From the sequence record MT446420.1: a stretch of DNA of 64,000 nucleotides. One strand, given 5' to 3'. This DNA is from Escherichia virus TH54. A program made the translations under genes and the position numbers. Of this stretch, positions 12,225 through 37,940 are shown one piece after another. How positions within the stretch are numbered: the first letter of the stretch is position 1; every line of letters begins with the position of its first letter. A model generated the notes under the pieces. It ran no database searches and was not told the origin of the DNA. It worked only from the letters and a program-made list of their open reading frames with translations.

Positions 12225-15200
12225 ATGGCTACTTTAAAATCGATACAATTTAAAAGAAGTAAAATAGCAGGAGCCAAGCCTACTGCAGCTCAGTTAGATG
12301 AAGGTGAACTGGCAATTAACTTAAAAGATAAACTTATTTTTACTAAAGATGATGTTGGTAATATTATCGACCTTGGATTTGCTAAAGGTGGTACAGTTGA
12401 TGGCAATGTTACTATTAACGGCCTTTTAACTCTTAAAGGTGATTACACTCAAACTGGTGGAATGCAAGTAACAGGGGATATTTACTCTGGAGCTGGGATG
12501 AGTGCAGCTGTTTACCGCGCAAGAAATGGTTCTTTTTATTCTCGTGCGCAAAATGACACGTCTAATGCCCACTTGTGGTTTGAAAATACAAATGGTTCTG
12601 AACGAGGAGTGCTATATGCCAAACCACAACTTGAAAATGAAGGCACTATTACCATGCGCGTTCGTCAAGGTACAGCAGCAGGTGCCGGCAATATAGAATT
12701 CCATTTTATTTCTTCTGGTGGTGGTATTTTTCAGGCCCCTATTTTAAAGGCTACTACGTCAATTAACGCGCCTACTATTAGTGTCAATAGTATAAGCCAT
12801 GATTCTAAATCGTTCGGTACCTACGACAGCCAATCTTTGGTTAATTATGTTTATCCAGGTACAGGCGAAACGAATGGTGTAAACTATCTTCGTAAAGTTC
12901 GTGCCAAATCCGGCGGCACTATGTGGCATGAGCTTTGTACTGCTCAATTAGGCCAAGCTGATGAAATGTCTTGGTGGACAGGCAATACTCCACAGTCAAA
13001 GCAATACGGTATTCGAAATGATGGCCGAATGATAGGTAGAAACAGTCTCGCATTAGGTACTATGACTACTGATTTTCCATCTAGTGATTATGGTAATGTC
13101 GGGGCACTTGGAGATGTGTTCCTTGCTTTAGGCGATAATGGCACAGGTTTACGTTATCAAAAAACTGGTGTATATGATTTAGTTGGTTCTGGATTATCCG
13201 TTGCATCTATTACTCCCGATAGTTTCCGTAGTACTCGTAAAGGTTTATTTGGACGTTCAGAAGACCAAGGCGCAACTTGGATTATGCCGGGCACAAATGC
13301 CGCATTTTTATCAGTTCAAACACAGGCTGATGCGAATAATGCAGGTGATGGTCAGACGCATATTGGCTATAACTCCGGTGGAAAAATGTCGCACTATTTC
13401 CGCGGTAAAGGTCAAACCAATATTAACACTCAAGAAGGCATGGAACTTAACCCAGGTATTCTTAAACTGGTAACTGGCGCAAATAATGTAATGTTTTATG
13501 CCGATGGTGGTATTACTTCCACTAAACAGTTATCGATTTATAATGGTGTTTATCTTGCGGCTAATAACTCAACAGCAGGTTTGACTTTTTCAGCAACTAC
13601 CACGATTGATGGCACCAAACAAATTCTTTGGGAAGGTGGCACTCGTTCAGGGCAGAATAAGAGTTATGTAACTGCTAAAGCATGGGGTAATGCTAATAAT
13701 GCGACTGGTGATAAATCTCGTGAAACTGTGTTTGAAGTTGGCGATGGACAAGGATATCATTTTTATTCACAACGTGTGGCTCCTGCTTCAGGCTCAACAA
13801 CAGGCCCAATTCAATTCCGTATTGCTGGTGCTTTATTAACTTCTGGTGGTATTACATCGTCTGGTTCTATTGTTACAGAATCAAGTCTAGTTGCTAATAA
13901 CGGATTGTCTGTAAATGGTCAAGCCAAATTTGGCGGAACCGCTGATGCATTGAGAATTTGGAACGCCGAGTATGGTGCTATTTTCCGCCGTTCGGAAGCA
14001 TCACTGCATATTATCCCGACTCCTAAAGATGCAGGTGAATCTGGTGGAATAAGTAATCTTCGCCCATTAAGTATCAGCCTTAATAATGGTATGGTGCAAA
14101 TGCGTCATTCCGTTACATTAGGTGACGATGGCGTTGGCGGCAATATGATTACTGTGGATAACGACAATAAACTTGTTGTTTTGACTTCTAATTCACGTAT
14201 AAGTCCAAATTTCCGTATGCAAATAGGCCAGTCATCTTATATTGATGCTGAATGCACTGACGCGGTTCGTTCAGCTGGGGCTGGTTCATTTGCTTCACAG
14301 AATAATGAAAACGTTCGTGCGCCATTCTATATGAATATTACTAGAACTGATACTAGTACTTATGTTCCTATTTTAAAACAACGTTATGTTCAAGGAAATA
14401 GCTGTTATTCTTTAGGAACTTTAATTAATGGTGGTAACTTTAGAGTCCATTATCATGAAGGTGGTGACGGCTCGACAACCGGTGCAGCTGTTGCTGATTA
14501 CGGATGGGAATTTGGTAGAGATGGTTCTTTTAGAACGCCTAATAAACTAGTAGTTAATAGCGTCACAATTGGCACTGATGGCAATATCACGGGCGGTTCT
14601 GGTAATTTTGCTAACTTGAACACTACTTTAGACCGTAAAGTTAATGTTGGCACTTGGTCTGGTAGTTCAACTGCAGGTTGGTATAAATTTGCTACTGTAA
14701 CTATGCCACAGTCAGTATCAACCGCTCAATTTAAGATTATAGGTGGTAATGGATACAATGTAAATTCACCAGAACAGGCTACAATTACTGAAGTAGTTCT
14801 TCGTACCAGCAATAACAATCCTAAAGGTATTAACGCAACTTTATGGGGCCGCACGGGTAATGGATTTACTAATATAGCAACAATTAATACCTCCGGTGAT
14901 GATTATGATGTTTATCTGTATGCTGGGACTTATGCAGACAAACTTATAGTTGAATATGACGCCACAGAAAATACCAGTAATATTTCGGTAATTGGACTTA
15001 ATGGTGGGTATCAAACACCTGTAGCAGAATTACCTACCGGCCATCTGCGTGGACAAGTGTATATGATGTACTCTGATGCTCAGATACCTTATCCGGTTGG
15101 TGCCCCGATTCCATGGCCAAGTGATTCAGTTCCTGCTGGATTTGCTTTAATGGAAGGTCAGACCTTTGATACTGCAGCTTATCCTAAGCTTGCTGTTGCA

Positions 15201-15845
15201 TATCCTACAGGTACTATTCCGGATATGCGTGGGCAGACTATCAAGGGTAAGCCAAGCGGTCGCGCAGTGTTGAGTGCAGAAGCTGATGGTATTAAGTCTC
15301 ATAACCATGGCGCATCTGCTTCAAGTACTGACTTGGGTACTAAAACCACATCAAGCTTCGACTATGGTACTAAAACATCTTCAAGCTTTGATTATGGTAC
15401 TAAGACCAGCAATACAACAGGTAACCATAACCATACAGTAAGTGGTACTACCAGTTCAGCCGGTGCTCACCAGCACGCTCGTTCAGGTCCGCAGCTTTCT
15501 AACGGTATATCTACTAATATTTTCCCTGATGGGTACAGTGATGTTGGAACCAACTACAACTCAAAATTTAGTGGAACAGTTATAGGTAGCTCGGTGCCGT
15601 GTATCATTGGTAAAACATCAAATGATGGTGCTCATACTCACACTTGGTCAGGTACTACTAGCACTACAGGTAACCATGCTCATACTGTAGGTATTGGTGC
15701 TCATACCCATACGGTAGGTATCGGTGCTCACACTCATACTGTAGCGATTGGTTCTCACGGACATACTATCACTGTAAATAATACAGGTAATACAGAAAAC
15801 ACGGTTAAAAACATCGCTTTTAACTATATCGTTCGCTTAGCATAA
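12225..15845 (+). CDS. 37: long tail fibre distal subunit gp37 (receptor-binding tip with His boxes)
   Basis: 1206 aa; C-terminal [29 protein letters not shown] x2/GSHGHTI HxH repeats typical of T4-type gp37 tip. Confidence 0.9.
15336..15404 (+). repeat. 30-bp tandem repeats inside gp37 (GTKT[TS]SSFDY units)
   Basis: ggtactaaaac...tcaagcttcgactat / ggtactaaaacatcttcaagctttgattat / ggtactaag... Confidence 0.8.
15690..15770 (+). repeat. 27-bp tandem repeats inside gp37 (GIGAHTHTV His-box units)
   Basis: Three successive 27-nt units encoding [27 protein letters not shown]. Confidence 0.75.
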
Positions 15846-33539: not shown

Positions 33540-34295
33540 TTAATTAAAAATTTCAACAACCATGAAACGTGGTACAACAGTAAATTCACCAGCATGAACA
33601 ACGTTCAGGAGTTCAACACCATCTTCAATCCACTGGTCTGTTACCCAACCACAAATAGAACTGTTAAATGGGCGTTTGATTTGAACTGGTTTACACAACA
33701 AGTCAATAGGGTCACCCAGTTCGCTAACTTCTTTCAGCAGTACAGATTCGCGCGGATAAAGGATAGCTTCAAGATTGTCACCTGATTCATTAATTGCAGT
33801 AAATTCAAAGATGCTTTGGTGATTGTGGTACTTAACTGTTTTAACGGTAAATGGAGCAAATCCAAAAATACCTTTCAGTACCCGCCAACCAGCATGCATT
33901 GCGACAGTCTTTCCAAATTGACTATCATCTTCAATAAGCTGGTAGGTTTTACCAACTTTGATAGGAGTTTCTTCAACTTCTTTGAAGAGTTCAATCTCAG
34001 CTTCATAAACCATAATTTTTTCTACTTCATTAGTATCAAGGCGACGTGCATGCAGAATATATGCTTTATCAAACCAGTTACTTTTTACAAAAGTTTCAAC
34101 AATAAATTCGCCTTCACCTAAAGCATCAGTCAGAGTATTATACCCAGAAACCATAGCTGCGTTTTGAATAATAGGTTCAATCAGTTGATAAGTTTTGTTA
34201 ATTTCAATAGTCATATTTTGTTTCTCAAGTTTTAATGGTTTAATTGGGCGAACATACATACTTACAACATCAAAGTCAATAAATTCTGGTTTCAT
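33540..34295 (-). CDS. hypothetical protein, paralog family
   Basis: 251 aa; shares C-terminal domain with 32970..33461. Confidence 0.45.
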   Translation of the reverse strand: MKPEFIDFDVVSMYVRPIKPLKLEKQNMTIEINKTYQLIEPIIQNAAMVSGYNTLTDALGEGEFIVETFVKSNWFDKAYILHARRLDTNEVEKIMVYEAEIELFKEVEETPIKVGKTYQLIEDDSQFGKTVAMHAGWRVLKGIFGFAPFTVKTVKYHNHQSIFEFTAINESGDNLEAILYPRESVLLKEVSELGDPIDLLCKPVQIKRPFNSSICGWVTDQWIEDGVELLNVVHAGEFTVVPRFMVVEIFN

Positions 34296-34600
34296 TATGC
34301 AACCTTATTGAACATCGCCAGTTGATTAGGTTGTACAACCATAATTTCACGACGACCTTTTGTATTTGACACGTTCAAGTAGATGCCTTTGTTCATGTCT
34401 GTTTCTTTATCATATACCGCAATTTTATTGACAGTAAAGATTTTACCACGAATATTTGTAAATGCGCATTCAAACGCTTTAGTCAGACCAGCTTCAGCAG
34501 CTTGAAGAGCAGACATTTCATATTGTTGGCCAATTTCAAAAGAAGTAATCATTTTGTTATCCTCATCAGTAGTTGATGAGATGATTATGTCTCTTTCCAT
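34295..34600 (-). CDS. hypothetical protein
   Basis: 101-aa ORF. Confidence 0.4.
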   Translation of the reverse strand: MERDIIISSTTDEDNKMITSFEIGQQYEMSALQAAEAGLTKAFECAFTNIRGKIFTVNKIAVYDKETDMNKGIYLNVSNTKGRREIMVVQPNQLAMFNKVA

Positions 34601-34619
34601 TGGCCTTGTACACTACTTT

Positions 34620-35303
34620 TTATCGTTTTTTCGGTAAAGATAACGGGTCTGCATCTTCTTCGGAAGGAACTTCATCTAAACCAAGAGCATAGCGTTGGGC
34701 ATACTTAAGCATCAAAATATCTTTCGCGCAGTCATGCACCGAATCATGCGCCACAAATCCATCTAAAGTCCCCTTCGGTAATGGAGTTTCACACATCTTA
34801 CGGACGAGTGACAAGGCTTCGATTGCTGTCCTGATATCTCGCTGGTTCCAGAATACAACCGGTTCCAGACCGTAGGTATTCAATTCACGCTCAGGGATAC
34901 CCTCATTGCGTTGCAGGTCGCGGATAAGGTCAACAAACAACGGGAAGTCAAAGGACATTCCACGACACCACATAAGACTTTCGTATTTGTTAATTCCATT
35001 ACCATTCAGATAATCAATTGCCTGTTGGATACCGGTCAGAGTATCAACATCTTGTGCAGAAGGAGCCAAGTTAACACGGGCTTCCGCTGATTGTTTTTTC
35101 CACCAACCCATGGTTGTTGTGTCGAACAACCGCTTACCTTTTTGGTATTCGAGACTGAACTTAATACGTTTGCCGCGATTAACCAGGGTTTCGAATGATT
35201 CCACAATAGCAGGGTCAGATTCGAATGTAATCAGAGCCAGGTCAATAACGGCTCCCTTCGAGCCGTTTCCCAGAGTTTCAAAATCAATAATAGCATCAAT
35301 CAT
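34620..35303 (-). CDS. dexA: exonuclease A (DEDD family)
   Basis: 227 aa (same as T4 DexA); MIDAIIDFETLG... N-terminus; position upstream of dda. Confidence 0.8.
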   Translation of the reverse strand: MIDAIIDFETLGNGSKGAVIDLALITFESDPAIVESFETLVNRGKRIKFSLEYQKGKRLFDTTTMGWWKKQSAEARVNLAPSAQDVDTLTGIQQAIDYLNGNGINKYESLMWCRGMSFDFPLFVDLIRDLQRNEGIPERELNTYGLEPVVFWNQRDIRTAIEALSLVRKMCETPLPKGTLDGFVAHDSVHDCAKDILMLKYAQRYALGLDEVPSEEDADPLSLPKKR

Positions 35304-35380
35304 CGCACATCTCTTTTAATTTTTGAATTTCACCAGCAACCATCGCACATCTCTTTTAATTTCTGAATTTCACCAGCAAC
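35301..35380. repeat. 40-bp tandem direct duplication (2 copies, 1 mismatch) at the dexA start
   Basis: 35301-35340 and 35341-35380 both read catcgcacatctcttttaattt(t/c)tgaatttcaccagcaac. Confidence 0.95.
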
Positions 35381-35575
35381 ATAGTCGGAGATAAAAATCC
35401 CTGGCTCTTCATTGTTAAAATATTCAATCGCGGCCATACGTTTCCGAATAAGATTCAGTTCCAGCAAAACGTAATTACCCTGCACGACGATAGTTGGATT
35501 ATCTTCGAAAAATTCAACCGCGTCCTGAATACCATAGATAAGATTATCTAAATCTTCTTTATGTACCTTATACAT
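35330..35575 (-). CDS. hypothetical protein; C-terminus altered by 40-bp tandem duplication
   Basis: 81-aa ORF whose last codons (..EMCDGCW) are encoded by the second repeat copy. Confidence 0.4.
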   Translation of the reverse strand: MYKVHKEDLDNLIYGIQDAVEFFEDNPTIVVQGNYVLLELNLIRKRMAAIEYFNNEEPGIFISDYVAGEIQKLKEMCDGCW

Positions 35576-36896
35576 AATATGCGTCGTACCTCGCTCGTGT
35601 GATTCCTACATAAGCCAACTGGCTCGCTAATGAAGCTTCGGCCATATGGATGCATGGAGTATAGATGAATGCTTTGTCCACTGAAACGCCCTGTGCCTTA
35701 TGGATTGTACTGACCGGAAGAGCACGAACTTTCAAGAAGGTCCTGCGCGCTTTCCAGAAGTCTTTCCACTCTGGACGTTTACCAGCGGCTTTCATCTGTT
35801 TGTATGTGTCAGCAACTTTCGCCAGATATGCCTGGAATTTTGGTTGCTGGTCTTCTGGTAAAACTTTAATGCGGTCAACCTGATATTCTTCATCTTCATC
35901 AATTGACTCAACTTCCAGGTCCCAGTAATTAATCACTAACTGGTGCGATTCACCTTTACAACGGAGAATGGTGGAAGTGTATTTGCAATCCTTGATGCGA
36001 ACCAACTGACCATTATTAAAAATAATTTCGCTGAATTTCTTTCCTTCAAATTCCAGCTCTTTCATGTGCGGCTCTTGCATAACCAGGACTTCATACAGTA
36101 AAAATGCTTTATCCGTTTCATATAGCTTGCGACGAATAATATTATTCAGTTTTTCAACTGATTTATTCGTGTACGCATACATCCTGTTTTCCATCAGCAT
36201 ATCAGCATCTTTTACAATACTGAAATAGTTTATCATGAAATCCTTTAAAGCGGTTTGTGAGGTGAAACCTTGTACGCCATGACCTTCATACATACAGTCA
36301 CGGAACCAACCCCCATTACGAATTTCTGTCGCCACTTCAATGATAGGAGCATTGCTTCGCATGACCTCAGTCAAATGAATCTGTTTGAACTTAGGATGCG
36401 TAAAGAATGGGCTTATCTTTTGTTGTGTGCTTCCTGGGTCAACTGGCTGCAGCTGGTGCATATCACCAATCCCAAGAATAGTACACCATTCAGGAACAGA
36501 GTTAAGAATAATCTTAAACAGAGACCCGTCATACATACTTGCTTCATCACAAACCAGAACATTGCATTTTGACATGTCAGGCATTTCGCGCTGTTCAAAA
36601 ACGTTTTGGTCTTCATACGTAGTCGGGTTAATCTTTAGGATACTATGGATTGTATTCGCTGTTTGACCAGACAATTTAGATAAAACTTTTTTCGCCTGGT
36701 GAGTTGGTGCAGCGAGCACAATTCCCATAACTCCATTTCGCACCAGATGGTCAATGACAAATTTTGTCAGAGTAGTCTTACCTGTGCCAGCTGGACCATT
36801 CAGAGTGATACATTCCCCTGAACGTCGCTGAATAGCTTCAGTGATATAATCAAAAGCTTCTTTTTGTCCTGTGTTCAAGTCTTCAAATTTAATCAT
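35568..36896 (-). CDS. dda: Dda DNA helicase (SF1B)
   Basis: ...GQK.AF......I......TLNGPAGTGKTTLTKF.I..L......GI.LAAPTH.AKK.LSKLSG..A.TIHSILKINP.TYE... collinear with T4 Dda. Confidence 0.95.
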   Translation of the reverse strand: MIKFEDLNTGQKEAFDYITEAIQRRSGECITLNGPAGTGKTTLTKFVIDHLVRNGVMGIVLAAPTHQAKKVLSKLSGQTANTIHSILKINPTTYEDQNVFEQREMPDMSKCNVLVCDEASMYDGSLFKIILNSVPEWCTILGIGDMHQLQPVDPGSTQQKISPFFTHPKFKQIHLTEVMRSNAPIIEVATEIRNGGWFRDCMYEGHGVQGFTSQTALKDFMINYFSIVKDADMLMENRMYAYTNKSVEKLNNIIRRKLYETDKAFLLYEVLVMQEPHMKELEFEGKKFSEIIFNNGQLVRIKDCKYTSTILRCKGESHQLVINYWDLEVESIDEDEEYQVDRIKVLPEDQQPKFQAYLAKVADTYKQMKAAGKRPEWKDFWKARRTFLKVRALPVSTIHKAQGVSVDKAFIYTPCIHMAEASLASQLAYVGITRARYDAYYV

Positions 36897-37192
36897 GCCA
36901 ATTTTACTCGCTTAACATATAAAGTATCTAAAATTAATTTCAGTTCGCGGACACGTTCTTCAGTAGGAAAAACAGTTTTTGTTTCCCACTTGTTGAACCA
37001 CCATTTTCTGGGAGTACACCGTGTTTCTATACGTCCCATACTTAAATATCTTTTTGTATTATATAAATAGCCAGCCATTTCATAATCTGCGACAGCTTTT
37101 GTGGTGTATAAGGTCACCTTTCCATCATACTCTAATGGGTGTTCAAAACCATCTTTATCTTTGTGAACCAGTGCATATGCGTAGTACATCAC
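36893..37192 (-). CDS. hypothetical protein (dda.1 position)
   Basis: 99-aa ORF. Confidence 0.4.
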   Translation of the reverse strand: MMYYAYALVHKDKDGFEHPLEYDGKVTLYTTKAVADYEMAGYLYNTKRYLSMGRIETRCTPRKWWFNKWETKTVFPTEERVRELKLILDTLYVKRVKLA

Positions 37193-37193
37193 A

Positions 37194-37940
37194 TTAACCT
37201 CTAATCAGTTTAAAAATTGACGCGTTCAAAGGCAGACCACGTTTCAGTTTTAATTTACCAATAAAACCAATCTTCTCAAAACGTTCAAGACCTGAAATGA
37301 TTTTATCATAGCAATCAAAAAGCGTTTCAGCATCAGTTAATTTCTTGGTAACTTTCCAGTCATTACCTTTGAGCAAGACGTTCAATTTAGTAAGCTCATG
37401 ACCTTCCGCAACACGGGAACCATCAATGCGAGCCTTCAGCGCAACCATTTTTAATTGGTTTTCTTTTGACTGCTCTGATTTACTCATTTGAGCATAATGC
37501 TTAACGCGATTCTCACGTTTGTGCTGAATGTTCTTTATATGGTTATATGCCTTTTTAATCTGTTCCCATTTCTCTGAAGTCAGATTTAACTTTTCAATCT
37601 TCTTGGCGGACGGGCGAGCAATTTTTACAGCAACATCATCACGACGTTGTTTAAGCTCATCCAGGGACCAATCAGAACGCATGGTGTTGTATTTCTTTTT
37701 AACAGGAATAACATTACCCTTGATATAACCAATATCATTGTTAAAACGTTCTAATGATAACTTCTCGTCTTCAACAGAGTTATTAAATGCTTCACCAGAA
37801 TAAGCACAAACTTTTTGGTCAAGAATGTTAACCAGGTAATTGAAATCCAGGTTAAAGTCCTTACCACGACGTTTAGCAGAAGCTTGAGTGTGTTCCAGAC
37901 GACGTTTAACTTTCAGTGTTTTGGTTTTTGATAAAGTCAT
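37194..37940 (-). CDS. hypothetical basic protein at the srd position
   Basis: 248 aa (T4 Srd 250 aa), between dda.1 and ADP-ribosyltransferase genes; assignment positional only. Confidence 0.4.
   Translation of the reverse strand: MTLSKTKTLKVKRRLEHTQASAKRRGKDFNLDFNYLVNILDQKVCAYSGEAFNNSVEDEKLSLERFNNDIGYIKGNVIPVKKKYNTMRSDWSLDELKQRRDDVAVKIARPSAKKIEKLNLTSEKWEQIKKAYNHIKNIQHKRENRVKHYAQMSKSEQSKENQLKMVALKARIDGSRVAEGHELTKLNVLLKGNDWKVTKKLTDAETLFDCYDKIISGLERFEKIGFIGKLKLKRGLPLNASIFKLIRG

Follow-up and report, generated by a model that had tools for sequence, protein, structure and literature searches.

Gene organization at the dexA.2/dexA junction

The stretch of DNA analysed here (the window) comprises 64,000 nucleotides of Escherichia virus TH54 (MT446420.1), a T4-like phage of the Gaprivervirus kind. 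On its minus strand it carries, in the order of transcription, dda, a homologue of dexA.2, dexA and motB.1. The same order is found in annotated relatives and in T4, which has an additional gene, dexA.1. The three genes that frame the region of interest are as follows.

35568..36896, minus strand: dda helicase, 442 aa (Pfam Dda SH3 domain and AAA_30; PHROG 325)
35330..35575, minus strand: dexA.2 homologue, 81 aa, ending ...EMCDGCW (PHROG 5263, E 2.9e-32)
34620..35303, minus strand: dexA, exonuclease A, 227 aa (65% identity to T4 DexA over 227/227 aa, E 8e-115)

The identification of dexA is based on this full-length homology to T4 DexA and on the retention of its position downstream of dda and dexA.2; profile matches to PHROG 255 (6.5e-75) and Pfam PF16473 were also obtained. 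The open reading frame (ORF) upstream of dexA, which was left unnamed in the preliminary description of this DNA, is by sequence comparison the dexA.2 homologue, and belongs to the DexA.2 family. The match of its product to PHROG 5263 spans residues 1–78 of 81, the added GCW lying beyond the end of the profile, and the protein is 31% identical to T4 DexA.2 (E 2e-9). A Pfam scan of the window's DexA.2 homologue gave no match at E<=0.01; PF26837 (Phage_T4_Y00H_G) is assigned to an identical 81-aa protein in precomputed hits. In T4, DexA.2 is an expressed, uncharacterised 9.5-kDa protein (PMC10097602), and co-expression has been reported for dda.1, dda, dexA.2 and dexA.1, perhaps as one polycistronic RNA (bioRxiv 10.1101/2024.04.04.588121).

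The upstream gene dda, which is read in the same direction, overlaps the start of dexA.2 by 8 nt. A 12-residue N-terminal extension of DexA.2 (MLESHERGTTHI) is annotated in UPEC01, UPEC07, CJ20 and many metagenome gene calls, but in the window (35576–35614, minus strand) a TAG stop closes this extension, which supports the ATG of MYKV... as the real DexA.2 start. On the other side of dexA, the ORF between dexA and motB.1 (window 34295–34600, minus strand) has 101 aa (306 nt), as it does in VR7, SP18, CJ20, DK-13, P479, PSD2001 and RZ, and 85 aa (258 nt) in MN01, VR20, VR25, ECML-359 and others. This is a second length polymorphism beside the duplication described below, and shows no co-variation with it.

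Anatomy of the repeat

The preliminary description drew attention to a near-perfect 40-bp tandem duplication across the dexA translation start, and our analysis bears this out. Two head-to-tail 40-nt units, catcgcacatctcttttaatttTtgaatttcaccagcaac at 35301–35340 and then catcgcacatctcttttaatttCtgaatttcaccagcaac at 35341–35380, abut with zero spacer and are identical at 39 of 40 positions, the sole difference being T35323 in one copy against C35363 in the other. As expected of a tandem duplication, the copies are adjacent and in the same orientation, and close relatives have exactly one copy at the same site. Tandem Repeats Finder reported the array as 35297–35380 (period 40, 2.1 copies, 95% matches) with a score of 154, the highest of the 23 tandem arrays in the 64-kb window (the runner-up scored 107), and a separate repeat search of the window returned the identical 40-nt pair. 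When tandem units at >=90% identity were scored in 100 simulated windows (first-order Markov versions of the real one), the best had at most 12 matching bases, compared with 39 for the real repeat, which is thus far above chance expectation. The parts of the duplicated region are listed here.

35341..35380, minus strand: copy 2, transcriptionally upstream; supplies the usual C-terminal residues of DexA.2, VAGEIQKLKEMCD, and also contains a second, decoy dexA Shine–Dalgarno sequence and ATG (35343–35341)
35301..35340, minus strand: copy 1, on the dexA side; begins with 11 nt that complete DexA.2 in another reading frame (..G C W stop), and the remainder consists of a 26-nt spacer with the dexA Shine–Dalgarno GAG (35313–35311), plus the dexA ATG (35303–35301)
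35304..35329, minus strand: the new 26-nt intergenic spacer, between the DexA.2 TGA (35332–35330) and the dexA ATG
35296..35343, minus strand: mini-ORF of 15 codons, MVAGEIQKLKEMCDD plus stop, predicted from a reading of the sequence

The base at 35363 in copy 2 (C) is the majority allele among single-copy relatives, while that at 35323 in copy 1 (T) occurs as a single-copy allele only in phage pEC-M719-6WT.2. The mismatch is therefore not a unique mutation that followed the duplication, each copy's allele being also a single-copy allele in other phages.

Elsewhere in the window there are in-frame tandem repeats of 30 nt (15336–15408, plus strand) and 27 nt (15681–15767, plus strand), near the 3' end of an ORF of 1206 aa (12225–15845) that is followed by one of 183 aa; one unit reads HTVGIGAHT. 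These look like the His-x-His repeats of the tip of a gp37-type long tail fibre, and we presume the 183-aa ORF to be a gp38-like partner.

Consequences for the two genes

In single-copy genomes, the start codon and ribosome-binding region of dexA lie inside the last 37 nt of dexA.2. All 17 of these genomes encode a DexA.2 of 79 aa ending in ...EMCDD, the C-terminus that had been proposed as ancestral from the window alone, and in all of them the TGA of dexA.2 and the ATG of dexA overlap within 8 nt (ATGATTGA). The duplicated unit consists of exactly those last 37 nt of dexA.2 plus the dexA ATG, and both genes therefore survive. The dexA.2 frame passes through copy 2 and stops 11 nt into copy 1, so that the last Asp is replaced by Gly-Cys-Trp; in all 10 duplicated genomes of our alignment (see below) DexA.2 has 81 aa, ends in ...EMCDGCW and terminates 26 nt before the dexA ATG. 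The placing of copy 2 in the 3' end of the upstream ORF, with the resulting ..EMCDGCW terminus, and of the dexA ATG (35303–35301) and its leader in copy 1, had been correctly read beforehand; both follow from the sequence and its ORFs.

The dexA leader in copy 1 is unchanged as far as –37, including the GAG at 35313–35311, 7 nt before the dexA ATG, but now lies outside the upstream ORF. DexA itself has 227 aa in all duplicated genomes and in all single-copy ones except TH44 (229 aa). As far as can be judged from their reading frames, both DexA.2 and DexA are intact in every carrier.

Copy 2 provides a second GAG-N7-ATG (ATG at 35343–35341), out of frame with dexA, and the predicted mini-ORF that begins there has as its stop the ancestral TGA, which overlaps codons 2–3 of dexA. 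The overlapping stop/start arrangement is thus no longer found between dexA.2 and dexA in the window, its geometry being kept only by the mini-ORF. Initiation at the decoy ATG was considered as a source of DexA with an N-terminal extension, and rejected: 40 is not divisible by 3, and the frame stops after 15 codons. A promoter and terminator scan of 34500–37300 found none in the repeat, with counts at or below the shuffle expectation, and an Rfam scan of 34400–36000 (E<=1) gave as its sole match a chance-level isrF (13 bits, where the gathering score is 40).

Distribution among Gaprivervirus phages

A megablast search with 35150–35550 against 50,697 phage records matched 33, all Gaprivervirus-like (VR7, VR20, VR25, VR26, SP18, MN01 and the TH series among them), at 92.6–99.5% identity. 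None was identical to the query, which marks the window as a distinct member of the genus. Some of the matches were in one piece over 401 nt and others in two pieces spanning 361 nt. When 26 non-redundant GenBank Gaprivervirus loci were aligned with the window (27 sequences), the duplication was present in nine of the 26 (10 of 27 with the window included), and the remaining 17 were single-copy, with a clean 40-nt alignment gap. About one in three of the sampled Gaprivervirus genomes thus has the duplication. Carriers besides the window are MN01 (Bangladesh), TH57, TH55, TH22 and TH41 (USA), ECML-359, UPEC07 and UPEC01 (Uganda) and VR20 (Lithuania), and so come from different laboratories and continents. 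The exact T/C mismatch of the window is found in seven GenBank genomes.

Further carriers came from metagenomes. The exact 81-aa DexA.2 was present on 14 contigs in a public protein collection (NCBI, Logan, ENA and others), and on 23 in a second look-up. At least six metagenome or SRA contigs (L032, L033, L035, L037, L038 and L040), unrelated to the GenBank isolates, have the duplication with the same boundaries; having been retrieved by an exact match to the 81-aa protein, they bias the haplotype sample towards alleles that keep ...GCW. A scan of IMG/VR for the duplication junction and the right-hand junction returned only VR20, VR25 and VR26, all already in GenBank, of which VR20 is the only carrier, and a scan of JGI metagenomes for the duplication junction gave no match. 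Literature searches on the genus, on dexA/dexA.2 and on the VR phages found, in the library searched, no paper describing the duplication.

Some other features of the aligned region may be mentioned. At 35283 (dexA codon 7) the window has GAT, against GAC in 26 of 26 GenBank relatives, the change being synonymous (Asp). From its nearest relative, MN01, the window differs at 104 sites across a 3.4-kb region, and may accordingly be regarded as a distinct mosaic genome. In the record of DCP80 (PQ671644.1, 140,978 bp), tail sheath and terminase genes adjoin dexA and the flank is 29% divergent from the others; this record probably reflects a large rearrangement, a deletion or a misassembly.

Haplotypes, recombination and probable copy loss

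Among the duplicated sequences there are at least five haplotypes, the two copies differing at 0–3 sites (92–100% identical). With positions numbered on the coding strand within the 40-nt unit, they are:

Type A: CAG in the upstream copy and CAA in the downstream copy (position 18); window, MN01, TH57, TH55, ECML-359, TH22, UPEC07, TH41, L032, L035
Type B: TGC in the upstream copy and TGT in the downstream copy (position 36); VR20, UPEC01
L033 and L040: copies differing at positions 5, 18 and 36
L037: copies differing at positions 5 and 9
L038: both copies identical

Single-copy alleles mostly correspond to the upstream copy, the exceptions being pEC-M719-6WT.2 (CAA) and DK-13 and PSD2001 (TGT). 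Of the 16 duplicated sequences, three (L033, L037 and L040) have a C-to-T change at position 5. This change is confined to downstream copies and is tied to different neighbouring single-nucleotide polymorphisms (SNPs). It would change Ala to Val in DexA.2 if the gene were single-copy, but is synonymous in the ...GCW frame of the downstream copy.

In a neighbour-joining tree built from 600 + 600 nt of flanking sequence, duplicated genomes are interleaved with single-copy ones, and the deepest clade (VR7, VR25, TH15 and TH40) is single-copy. Three phages with one copy, EAWsc9, vB_YenM_P8 and pEC-M719-6WT.2, agree with the duplicated TH55, TH22, UPEC07 and ECML-359 at 62 of 62 variable sites within ±200 nt. 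The occurrence of both copy numbers on one such haplotype indicates, at the level of sequence comparison, occasional loss or gain of a copy. EAWsc9 and vB_YenM_P8 carry the CAG of the upstream copy, and pEC-M719-6WT.2 the CAA of the downstream copy; this would fit loss of a copy through slippage or unequal exchange to one or the other side of the SNP, and would also fit formation of the duplication by unequal exchange between two such single-copy genomes. The type B genomes VR20 and UPEC01 differ from each other in both immediate flanks, which implies that the duplication has recombined onto different backgrounds. Taken together, the shared boundaries, the varied flanks and the minimum of five haplotypes point to an established, recombining population polymorphism.

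Origin of the duplication

It seems likely that the 40-bp duplication of the dexA.2/dexA junction is a genuine, heritable length polymorphism of Gaprivervirus that arose once, is nearly neutral, has been spread by recombination and is occasionally lost. The argument for a single origin comes mainly from the boundaries of the unit. These are unique, because the preceding base (T) differs from the last base of the unit (G) and the following base (A) from its first (G), and they are identical (...GCGATG|GTTGCT...) in 16 of 16 duplicated sequences. Between the junction and the flanks ...GACTAT| and |ATTGAT... 0 nt are shared, so the exact microhomology at both ends of the unit that characterizes slipped-strand events is absent, and since no microhomology would steer repeated events to this spot, a single origin is much likelier than several. 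The only local similarity is a quasi-repeat (5/7), with GTTGCTG beginning the unit and ATTGATG immediately following it. Slippage on a TTG microhomology was rejected, as the second copy would then begin with A, and not with the G that is observed.

The imperfect 7-mers GTTGCTG and ATTGATG, 40 nt apart, may have been the sites of the originating event, whether template slippage or illegitimate recombination; slippage, topoisomerase-mediated joining and other illegitimate joining are all candidate molecular routes. Because both gene ends were regenerated, the new allele would have been nearly neutral, and could then have reached different backgrounds through homologous recombination, which is frequent in T4-type phages. 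Occasionally one copy would be removed by slippage or unequal exchange involving the two 40-nt units, giving single-copy descendants with the allele of either copy. A frequency of about one-third, across continents and on several backgrounds, could nevertheless reflect selection instead of neutrality.

Possible effects on dexA translation

A role for selection would most readily involve the synthesis of DexA. The duplication might be an adaptive regulatory variant that resolves the overlap between dexA.2 and the dexA initiation region and thereby re-tunes DexA synthesis, an interpretation that we think rather unlikely. Ribosomes translating dexA.2 would stop 26 nt upstream of the dexA ATG and no longer on it; the decoy site would open a 15-codon leader ORF ending on the dexA start, with scope for termination–reinitiation or for competition; and any repressor site in the leader, such as one for RegA, would be doubled. 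The allele is certainly common (10 of 27 sequences including the window), geographically wide and present on several backgrounds, and the mini-ORF and the second Shine–Dalgarno sequence and ATG follow directly from the sequence. Also in favour of this interpretation, none of the 17 aligned single-copy alleles has the position 5 C-to-T change of the downstream copy. On the other hand, the leader peptide is not conserved (three carriers have Ala to Val), and on the same haplotype the single-copy form has either been retained or come back, which argues against any strong advantage.

Predicted mRNA folding gave a mean unpaired probability, over the stretch from the dexA Shine–Dalgarno sequence to the ATG, of 0.59 for the duplicated allele against 0.36–0.50 for simulated single-copy mRNA; the somewhat higher value favours a regulatory effect, but the differences are small and model-dependent. 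With regard to RegA, T4 dexA is a RegA-repressed message with the operator AAAAUUUAAUGUUU (PMC3014915), and a RegA operator would be expected to be A/U-rich and unstructured and to include the AUG and a 5' poly(A) tract. The dexA leader of the window has an A-rich stretch, AAAUUCAAAAAUUAAAAGAG, 11–30 nt upstream, but the GUGCG directly before the AUG is not A/U-rich, unlike the T4 RegA operators (PMC3014915), and a doubled RegA site in the duplicated leader is only a possibility. DexA degrades host DNA and 5hmC phage DNA (PMC12153337), and its dosage plausibly matters for that reason. It is possible, as the sequence stands, that dexA translation is altered by way of the decoy start and mini-ORF, and this is the only route by which the duplication would acquire greater interest.

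Somewhat less probable again is the more specific proposal that the event was selected because it resolved the overlap, freeing the dexA ribosome-binding region and the dexA.2 coding sequence to evolve separately, with the mini-ORF and decoy start setting the level of DexA. If that were so, the duplication would be a balanced expression variant, or one dependent on host or temperature.

Alternatives to a single heritable event

Could the same 40 nt have been duplicated independently in several lineages, in the course, for instance, of unequal exchange among genomes infecting one cell? Such recurrence would explain why the allele of each copy matches a different single-copy allele, and the facts that duplicated genomes are polyphyletic in the flank tree, that the copy-1 alleles CAA and TGT exist as single copies (in pEC-M719-6WT.2, and in DK-13 and PSD2001, respectively) and that both copy-number states occur on an identical local haplotype are all compatible with it. 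However, the boundaries are identical in all 16 carriers although there is no junction microhomology to direct repeated events; a SNP private to copy 1 is common to haplotypes that differ elsewhere, which indicates shared descent with later recombination; and one origin, coupled with T4-type recombination and occasional copy loss, accounts for the same pattern. We therefore consider recurrence at a hotspot very improbable.

The suggestion that the duplication is very recent and private to this isolate, or an assembly artefact, draws support only from the near-identity of the copies (39/40) and can scarcely be entertained, as the same boundaries occur in nine GenBank phages and at least six contigs, making 15 other independent assemblies, with several haplotypes and backgrounds. 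The same structure and mismatch occur in seven of these GenBank genomes, and the duplication is internal in GenBank records that begin at many different genome positions. Comparison with related isolates, which had been proposed as a check, has thus upheld the duplication itself, shared by nine of 26, and not the recent or artefactual cause offered for it. The whole structure, at 80 nt, is shorter than a typical sequencing read, so that one read could cover it entirely, which would leave an assembler little cause to invent it.

Significance

The chief use of these findings is corrective: the duplication, probably an old and nearly neutral polymorphism with a single origin, should be neither flagged as a misassembly nor edited out of TH54 or related genomes, and it is no marker of recent laboratory evolution. 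Since the 40-bp difference in length can be scored by PCR, it offers a natural marker for recombination and lineage mixing among Gaprivervirus, several members of which are in development for therapy or biocontrol. It also provides a natural example of a tandem duplication that falls exactly over a gene overlap and separates two functions without harm to either gene. An effect on DexA expression, if real, would make it a small case of leader-ORF evolution in a T4-type phage.

Comparison with known systems

Short tandem-duplication polymorphisms produced by slippage or illegitimate recombination are classic in the rII and lysozyme mutants of phage T4, and the Gaprivervirus duplication is a new instance of this well-known kind of variation. 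Like those duplications, it repeats some tens of bases head to tail, is derived with respect to single-copy relatives, can apparently collapse to one copy, and has imperfect short repeats flanking the unit. Unlike the laboratory mutants, it is a natural allele present in about one-third of the sampled genomes; it damages neither of the flanking genes, and its junction has no exact microhomology.

The neighbourhood dda, dexA.2, dexA, motB.1 is also that of T4, and in both cases an 8-nt ATGATTGA stop/start overlap follows dexA.2. In T4 this overlap is at the dexA.2/dexA.1 junction, and is the same as that between dexA.2 and dexA in single-copy Gaprivervirus. DexA.1 and DexA.2 of T4 are paralogous proteins (E 4e-8, with 35% identity across 51 aa; NC_000866, 909–1389), from which it seems that the junction region was duplicated on the scale of a whole gene in the T4 lineage. 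The two cases differ in extent and divergence: T4 duplicated a whole gene of about 240 nt, which has diverged to 35% identity, whereas in Gaprivervirus only the last 37 nt of one gene and the ATG of the next were duplicated, and the copies are still 92–100% identical.

Finally, the single-copy Gaprivervirus allele has the stop/start overlap typical of coupled overlapping gene pairs, and the duplicated allele, whose short ORF runs to a stop on the start codon of the next gene, is like the leader-ORF coupling of bacterial and phage operons, a resemblance that, judged from the predicted reading frames, is structural only.
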